A stretch of 64,000 nucleotides of DNA from Eledone cirrhosa. Lineage: Eukaryota. Under the pieces are notes generated by a model, which saw nothing but the letters and a program-made list of their open reading frames with translations, was not told the DNA's origin and did not search any database. Shown piece after piece: positions 55,251 through 55,487 of the stretch; positions within the stretch are counted from its first letter, which is position 1; each line of letters begins with the position of its first letter. Location: NCBI GenBank assembly GCA_964016885.1, contig OZ024748.1:50096001-50160000 (forward strand), in the 5' to 3' direction. The translations under genes and the position numbers were made by a program.

Positions 55251-55487
55251 AACGAAGGAAATGTGGTAAGGAACCAGGTGGACCATAACGCACCAAAGTA
55301 CTCAATACTTGAGGTAGTAGAGTGGGTAATAGGAACCAGTAAGACCCCGATAGCTGAGCTCTTTGACCATATATGGAATTACCCCTTGAGAAGATCGGCT
55401 ATTTAAATACCAGGATAAATTTTCATTTAGTCCAGAATTAGCCGTCGAAACGGCTTGAGCTCAGCTGTCGGGGTCTTACTGGTTCCT
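55251..55487. mobile_element. Family B element retaining a complete hammerhead
   Basis: Inverted tail-plus-arm 55251-55360, then sense segment 55361-55487. Confidence 0.9.
55381..55474 (+). ncRNA. Type I hammerhead ribozyme, U3-A8 core variant (family B)
   Basis: ACCCC-TTGAGAA-GAtCGGCTA...TAGCCGTC-GAAA-CGGCT(tgagctc)AGCTG-TC-GGGGT; GUC cleavage triplet at 55467-55469. Confidence 0.8.

Follow-up and report, generated by a model that had tools for sequence, protein, structure and literature searches.

A U3-A8 Hammerhead Motif in a Probable Penelope-Like Terminus, and a Cluster of 5′ Ends in Its Loop II

In a 64,000-nt stretch of AT-rich animal DNA (the window, of which 30,710 bases fall under simple-repeat masking), one copy of a dispersed repeat carries both halves of a hammerhead ribozyme motif at 55381-55474, and none of its six siblings carries the 5′ half. 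The origin of the inverted ends and pseudo-LTRs of Penelope-like elements (PLEs), and the role of the ribozymes within them, are presented as open questions in two papers (PMC8557442; PMC11167929).

The sequence at 55381-55474 is a real and well-formed type I hammerhead motif with an already described core variant (U3-A8), and it is predicted to cut itself. Core nucleotides 3-9 and 12-14, A15.1-U16.1 and the NUH triplet are all in register, three helices are present with the open ends in stem I, and the minimum free energy (MFE) prediction for 55362-55492 is the active hammerhead fold, with pair probabilities of 0.48-0.99. In this fold, a distal stem I helix (GGAATT 55375-80 / GGTTCC 55481-86; 0.94-0.99) lies beyond a 6-nt bulge, and the motif is therefore larger than 55381-55474, extending over 55375-55486. 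A preliminary description of the locus had proposed the U3-A8 core, the GUC site and a cut after 55469, all of which are borne out as predictions by sequence and fold, and its stem I (ACCCC/GGGGT) and core TTGAGAA are confirmed. Its account of the other two helices stands in part. Stem II, closed by G55393-C55446, reaches the proposed 8 bp only if T55395 is bulged, and its loop measures 37 nt as opposed to about 40. Stem III does have 6 bp, one of them a G.U pair, but its loop is the 7-nt TGAGCTC and not the GAGCTC palindrome alone. Through this palindromic helix, cofolding predicts a dimer that is more stable than two monomers by 16.5 kcal/mol. The copy is predicted to fold correctly when taken as an isolated RNA. 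A rival hairpin across GAAA has a probability of 0.24 in the window copy and of 0.00-0.74 across allele sets, the highest value being reached in one allele combination; if the folding model holds, this alternative could serve as a built-in off state. The stem I bulge is hypervariable between copies, which, judged from sequence, speaks against loop II making fixed tertiary contacts with loop or bulge I. Stems II and III also reuse the same short sequences, CGGCT twice and AGCYGTC twice, at 55396-55400, 55440-46, 55451-55 and 55463-69, and it is this repetition that gives rise to the rival hairpin across GAAA.

Table 1. Coordinates of the insertion, its hammerhead motif, the candidate promoter elements and the sibling copies in the window
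Feature	Position	Strand	Basis or remark
(TA)n target, left flank	55200..55251	.	sequence
80-nt tail, inverted arm only	55251..55330	-	element beyond its short 3′ end; alignment, offsets +18/+98
Sole ATG of the 3′-half-plus-tail arm	55284..55286	-	G at -3 and +4; possible ORF start
Inverted 5′-truncated 3′ end, 31 nt	55331..55361	-	antisense to 55457-55487; 32/33 match
Forward arm, 5′-truncated 3′ end with complete hammerhead	55362..55487	+	other copies extend upstream of 55361
Stem I 5′ strand	55375..55385	+	distal GGAATT and proximal ACCCC; pair probabilities 0.74-0.99
Stem I proximal	ACCCC 55381-85 / GGGGT 55470-74	+	sequence, pair probabilities 0.70-0.98
Catalytic core 5′ part, TTGAGAA (U3 U4 G5 A6 G7 A8 A9)	55386..55392	+	sequence, descriptor scans
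Stem II 5′ strand	55393..55401	+	fold; G10.1 = 55393, T55395 bulged
TATA-like TATTTAAA, candidate promoter element	55400..55407	+	29 nt before A55429
Loop II, 37 nt	55402..55438	+	variable among relatives; weak internal hairpin (-3.2 kcal/mol)
Initiator-like TTAGTCC (+1 = A55429), candidate	55427..55433	+	sibling 5′ ends cluster here
Stem II 3′ strand (C11.1 = 55446) with G12 A13 A14 A15.1	55439..55450	+	fold; GAAA = 55447-50
Helix III, 6 bp and 7-nt loop	55450..55468	+	near-perfect palindrome, able to form intermolecular duplex (cofold)
GUC triplet	55467..55469	+	hammerhead numbering; C17 = 55469; predicted cleavage 3′ of C55469
Stem I 3′ strand	55470..55487	+	GGGGT, 6-nt bulge (variable), GGTTCC; reaches the short 3′ boundary of the element
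(TA)n target, right flank	55488..55593	.	sequence
39.8k sibling stub	39817..40007	+	inverted arm with tail, forward arm; arms start at reference 55436, 55425
53.1k sibling stub	53096..53296	+	both arms start at reference 55429; one extra G between
53.7k sibling stub	53527..53733	-	arms start at reference 55429 and 55426
55.6k sibling stub	55594..55677	-	partial tail and last 26 nt; opposite orientation; antisense to the ribozyme's 3′ strand
57.2k sibling stub, diverged	57187..57342	+	GTG at cut triplet
59.0k related stub, diverged	58950..59030	+	helix III broken; tail-like sequence upstream, sense orientation

The hammerhead is carried by a 237-bp insertion into (TA)n, in whose forward arm it lies (Table 1). 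In six of the seven window copies the order is (TA)n, inverted 3′ end with the 80-nt tail, forward 5′-truncated 3′ end and (TA)n again; five of the six siblings have this layout, and the 59.0k copy differs. The tail lies on the inverted arm in all six inverted copies (truncated in one), and the 3′ boundaries of all arms are fixed at one of two distances beyond the cut site, 18 nt for the short end and 98 nt for the tail end. In the four comparable insertions, the stem I bulge shows 0, 0, 1 and 2 arm-to-arm differences and it differs between insertions, so both arms of an insertion were copied from one template. All 11 usable arms, a count that drops the B57 forward arm as a spurious alignment and leaves out the tail-only inverted arm of the 55.6k copy, run 5′ past the cut site, and thus the template RNA was uncut there. 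In the published in vitro work, uncut RNA is the main substrate (Frangieh, 2024; PMC11167929). Taken as a whole, the motif is probably a pseudo-LTR hammerhead; its Penelope-like retroelement family would be present in an animal genome in very high copy number and have (TA)n microsatellites as its target. Tail-like words (…AATATATTGAGTACCTA…) are common to the 59.0k copy (58950-58975) and a fragment at 39640-39670 (-), and these two pieces appear to form a diverged sister family in which the tail-like part lies in sense orientation upstream of half a ribozyme.

Part of the stretch is contained in 17 of 23 listed public sequencing runs, 7 of them at half the words or more, and no RNA run is listed among them; runs with small shares were left out of the analysis. 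Detailed data came from runs X1, X4, X5 and X21 (21,344 X21 reads, 13,506 X1 contigs and only 3 X5 contigs). These runs represent coded organisms, possibly of other species than the host; contig depth was summed, and X21 is a biased RAD library in which 3 of 4 pile-up places fall on AATT words. The ratio of depth in the 5′ half to that in the 3′ half is 0.049 in X1, 0.106 in X4 and 0.043 in X21. Complete ribozymes are a minority of the family, about 5% of family depth in two public runs, and are not unique to this locus; the claim that this is the only complete family B copy is right for the window (0 of 6 siblings have the 5′ half) but not beyond it. Contigs without any difference from the window copy cover 55361-55451 in X4 and 55361-55468 in X5, and both continue upstream. 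A joint of 55350 to 55467 on opposite strands occurs in 1,357 X21 reads, and in other copies the tail therefore follows the ribozyme in sense orientation. Joints between a truncated copy and an adjacent inverted one are numerous in the public runs as well.

The absence of the 5′ half from the siblings is probably not a matter of random decay, as cDNA synthesis would usually end at a specific position, between 55425 and 55436; neither this position-specific loss nor the host element is mentioned in the preliminary description. Ten sibling arms are usable for this purpose; the six that reach loop II all end at 55425-55436 (three of them exactly at 55429) and four end further 3′. Same-direction joints lie at 55428-30 in 9 of 14 cases and at 55425-35 in 13 of 14, and their left ends are scattered over 55289-55350 (all among the joints listed, 15 of 83). 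In X1, depth is 2.0 million at 55438 and 0.17 million at 55421, beyond which it is level. The preferred cause, held tentatively and at a little under even confidence, is a transcription start within loop II, at A55429. Candidate TATA-like and initiator-like elements are placed at 55400..55407 and 55427..55433, on the basis of general consensus patterns. Such a pair was counted at 9 of 53,862 positions of background sequence and turned up in 0.1-0.4% of shuffled loop II sequences, with the patterns having been chosen post hoc. The sole ATG downstream of A55429 belongs to the tail, at a distance of 103 nt, and has a G at both -3 and +4, and both arms of the 53.1k copy start at 55429 with one extra G between them (a single case). 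A TATA-plus-initiator candidate has been noted in an Adineta pseudo-LTR (Arkhipova, 2013; PMC3846280). Most stubs may be run-off cDNAs, copied from an RNA whose 5′ end lies within its own ribozyme. A bolder version, which is doubtful, is that a core promoter is nested in hammerhead loop II; RNA from A55429 would then carry only the substrate half at its 5′ end and could not cut itself.

An alternative possibility, given about an even chance, is that the cluster at 55425-55436 results from stem II or the loop II hairpin stalling reverse transcriptase (RT), from a 3′ splice site (TTTTCATTTAG, 55420-30) or from sub-family alignment failure. A hairpin is indeed predicted at 55413-33, but its stability is low (-3.2 kcal/mol), and RT gets through stems I and III, which are stronger. 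Introns in the pseudo-LTR are known for PLEs (PMC4209133; PMC2377424), yet no constant upstream exon is apparent in the loose ends (agreement 0.34-0.44) or in the letters at the joints. The alternative gains from the biased library, whose X21 read ends fall on AATT words, from the listing of only 15 of 83 joints, and from the internal promoter of D. virilis Penelope, which is described as TATA-less (PMC2377424); the window junctions, which are direct inversions at the cluster site, and the rarity of the TATA and initiator pair, itself a post hoc figure, argue against it.

If the RNA does start at a promoter within loop II, the 3′ pseudo-LTR would hold a complete ribozyme or would lend the catalytic half in trans; cofolding of the two halves is predicted to give the active shape, with a gain of 12.4 kcal/mol over the separate strands. 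Some 90% of genomic arms would be "strong-stop"-like cDNAs that begin at one of two internal RT start sites and run to the capped 5′ end; they would be produced on both DNA strands and then linked head-to-head, and a copied cap would account for the extra G at the 53.1k junction. From PLE biochemistry, we infer that a GIY-YIG nuclease would nick both strands of (TA)n or AT-rich DNA and that reverse transcription would begin at two internal sites, +18 and +98. Both cDNAs would usually reach the RNA 5′ end in loop II before being joined head-to-head, leaving an inverted pair with a one-sided tail, and the longer minority, to which the complete copy described here belongs, could derive from the 3′ pseudo-LTR, from a template jump or from read-through RNA. 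In the master element, the complete ribozyme would cut the RNA after C55469, probably as a monomer in view of the 6-bp helix III and possibly also as a dimer via the helix III palindrome. No description of a promoter within a ribozyme of this kind was met in the papers searched. With thousands of stubs, two sharp 3′ boundaries and one sharp 5′ boundary, the run-off-and-jump model is directly testable, and the promoter-in-loop reading, if true, would raise the significance of the locus.

The relatives in the public runs also bear on whether the ribozyme is maintained by selection. With a variable place defined as one at 5% or more in any run, and with structural classes drawn after the fact, variable places among the variants listed number 1 of 14 in the core and 3 of 33 in the stems, with pairing preserved in 2 of these 3; loop III has 0 of 7 and loop II 10 of 37. 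Core and stems together (4/47) differ from loop II (10/37) at a Fisher p of 0.037. The most common alleles, T55466C and T55438A, strengthen helices III and II, respectively, and A55394C, at 44% in X21, breaks the second pair of stem II and weakens its base. Position 3 is C in 60 of 353 X21 reads (17%), in 24% of X1 depth and in 39% of X4 depth, the last share being that of one contig with 22.1 of 56.1 depth. At the 5% threshold, no A-to-G change at position 8 was seen in X1, X4 or X21, where A-to-G tallies are fully explained elsewhere, and the X4 contig therefore carries C3 with A8. Such copies make up a multi-copy sub-family with the core CTGAGAAG (55386, 55391; X1, X4 and X21), in which C3 stands with A at position 8. 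By its sequence, it would be either a dead ribozyme that is still spreading or a C3-G8 core with N7 deleted and an extra A; a literature search on C3-A8 or N7-deleted hammerhead cores returned nothing relevant.

These data do not show covariation. The stem III pairing that the preliminary description noted in siblings is kept as far as at least 5 pairs in 7 of 8 covering arms, although it is broken in the 59.0k copy (by eye), and what is kept is only inherited identity with one G.U/G-C change. Positions 3 and 8 do not covary in the relatives, C3 occurring in 17-39% with A8 unchanged, and no two-sided compensatory change was seen in the siblings (by eye) or in the relatives. The occurrence of C3 with an unchanged A8 speaks for spread not depending on an intact 3-8 pair. 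It is possible, if rather unlikely, that the hammerhead is a largely dispensable passenger, with crippled-core lineages spreading and U3-A8 being one neutral state, a reading that is compatible with a PLE. The C3 lineages without G8 point in this direction, insertion in vitro is reported to be unaffected by hammerhead mutants (PMC11167929), and hammerheads parasitising PLEs have been raised as a possibility (Craig, 2021; PMC8557442). Such a passenger role is nevertheless at odds with the 13 of 14 core places that have no variant at 5% in a listing short of one row, an A-to-T by the tallies, and with the 2 of 3 stem variants that keep pairing; in addition, CTGAGAAG may be a C3-G8 core that lacks N7 and has gained an A. 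With U3-A8 and C3-A8 lineages side by side, selection on ribozyme activity can be put to the test.

No RT or nuclease ORF was recognised in 145 of 180 candidate window frames, the stubs themselves being too short to contain one, and membership in the PLEs is therefore inferred from other features. Pfam searches on these frames gave 8 proteins with weak matches, all below the cut-off and none to RT or GIY-YIG, and neither the 3′ half nor the tail was found by exact pattern in viral contigs, metagenome contigs or prokaryote genomes (0 loci). As in PLEs, the hammerhead lies near the 3′ end of the element, with the cut site 18 nt from the short end. Rarity or novelty of the U3-A8 core is not supported by published work: natural U3-A8 covariation in hammerheads has been reported, with activity in vitro (Perreault, 2011; PMC3088659), and some 1,300 U3-A8 motifs occur in Schistosoma PLEs, among PLE hammerheads with a palindromic helix III (Cervera and De la Pena, 2014; PMC4209133). 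The present motif resembles the pseudo-LTR hammerheads of S. mansoni Cercyon and other metazoan PLEs described there in being of type I near the 3′ end, with U3-A8, G10.1-C11.1, a palindromic helix III, a proximal helix I of 4-5 bp, a long helix II (7-8 bp) and a helix II bulge as in D. virilis; those elements, too, are mostly single truncated copies with some opposite-strand pairs. Unlike the motifs described there, it has a helix III of 6 bp with a 7-nt loop (absent or small in theirs), a loop II of 37 nt, an A9 that is directly followed by G10.1 when read in the U3-A8 register, a distal stem I and a predicted monomer fold.

The insertions themselves have close parallels in endonuclease-positive PLEs. 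Inverted copies, tails, a (TA)n bias and long-loop hammerheads of PLE-X1 have been described (Craig, 2021; PMC8557442), and in biochemical work two RT start sites bound the tail and both strands are cut and extended (Frangieh, 2024; PMC11167929). Heavy 5′ truncation, a head-to-head inverted copy, a tail on one arm, an uncut RNA template, short palindromes or microhomology at junctions and (TA)n targets (Naiad and Hydra clades) are all shared with the endonuclease-positive PLEs as covered in these sources and in PMC3846280. In contrast to them, the tail is 80 nt here against the published 30-40, and the 5′ ends cluster in the ribozyme loop II. File S2 of Craig (2021) shows a loop II of about 30 nt in Selaginella PLE-X1 as well, and a palindromic helix III of 3-4 bp in Hydra-clade PLEs; the rows listed in that file are all C3-G8, and none joins U3-A8, a long loop II and a 6-bp helix III. 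In the consensus file of the same study, where line breaks may hide matches, five of six exact probe words were absent or unrelated, and the Naiad and Hydra consensus sequences gave no exact-word match in context in that line-broken text. The hammerhead locus is one more PLE-type terminus with an uncommon mix of U3-A8, a 37-nt loop II, a 6-bp palindromic helix III and an 80-nt tail; similar variants may be described by Lunse et al. on PLE hammerhead dimers.

It is improbable, but conceivable, that the family is non-autonomous, being a short PLE-mobilised element or retrozyme-like repeat that has no ORF of its own and in which the hammerhead processes a short or circular RNA. No ORF was found in the frames scanned, at most 155 nt of upstream master sequence has been seen (X4 record 14), non-autonomous PLE derivatives with pseudo-LTRs exist (PMC8557442), and the stable helix III is more like that of canonical than of minimal hammerheads. 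With the metazoan non-LTR retrozymes (PMC7229834), the family shares a type I hammerhead, short non-coding repeats and a genome that looks like an invertebrate's; those retrozymes are, however, described as tandems of 150-450 bp, and a head-to-tail tandem is present in 0 of 7 window copies, which have an inverted arm and a tail instead. The one-sided tail with a conserved ATG in good context also fits an ORF start. From this ATG, 12 codons lead to the tail end, and 3 of 4 read variants are synonymous in its frame (P about 0.08). A frame open through all 5 tail arms was considered and rejected as ORF evidence, as the copies are related, only about 40 codons are covered and the variants are 5 synonymous to 6 not.

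At the locus itself, the ribozyme is unlikely to be seen at work if the folding predictions are right. In transcripts that include the inverted arm, the active fold is predicted to lie 18-32 kcal/mol above the MFE structure, and the downstream 55.6k stub is predicted to block it by 21.5 kcal/mol. The antisense arms at 55329-61 and 55592-619 are predicted to out-compete the active fold, and for this reason the locus is not expected to yield the RNA-seq 5′ ends at GGGGTC put forward in the preliminary description. By the same modeling, folding in read-through RNA should be blocked by the antisense arm of the insertion itself, and the stub would be a dead copy with a masked ribozyme.

The motif was separated from background by a strict descriptor. 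At thresholds chosen after the motif was seen, it picks out this one site in the window, whereas 300 block-shuffled windows and 20,000 shuffled versions of the 237-nt element gave 0 hits each. A search of the whole window at Rfam gathering thresholds gave 0 matches, and at E<=10 over 55300-55560 Rfam gave 18 matches with no hammerhead family among them, the weak matches tracking the TA run. The long loop II and the variant core are the likely cause of this miss, which lowers only the case for membership of an Rfam family; the family is one that CUGANGA-based descriptors and Rfam both pass over. A chance resemblance within a palindromic repeat, for which the unremarkable MFE z-score (-0.96) and the Rfam result could be cited, is most improbable in light of the shuffled windows and elements, the core letters that are all in register and the conservation pattern.

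Several other features were observed in the window. Four minimal hammerheads with canonical cores are found at 44111-44176 (+), 45824-45884 (-), 56386-56452 (-) and 60385-60450 (-), each with CTGATGA or CTGAGGA, a long stem II, GAAA-TATAT-ATA and a TA-palindromic helix III; by sequence, they probably belong to a second PLE-derived family. A 185-nt interspersed repeat with A-box- and B-box-like words occurs at 4667-4851 and in at least 16 further full or partial copies (among them those at 15446, 17031, 31067, 45407, 60116 and 62518), and may be akin to a tRNA-derived SINE of the kind found in cephalopods; ARAGORN reported 0 tRNA genes. A short frame at 15913-16164 (+) contains FFVDDLKLYA, which we take to resemble the YxDD motif of a decayed non-LTR reverse transcriptase; it has no Pfam match and is, as far as seen, unrelated to the family described here. 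At 38929-39099 (+), a frame ends in a C2H2 zinc-finger-like motif (Pfam E = 0.0002, below the cut-off) and could be an exon or a fragment. Further short fold-back (palindromic) insertions lie at 56026-56117, 46203-46291, 44372-44508 and 40751-40788, and these are possibly stubs of other families.
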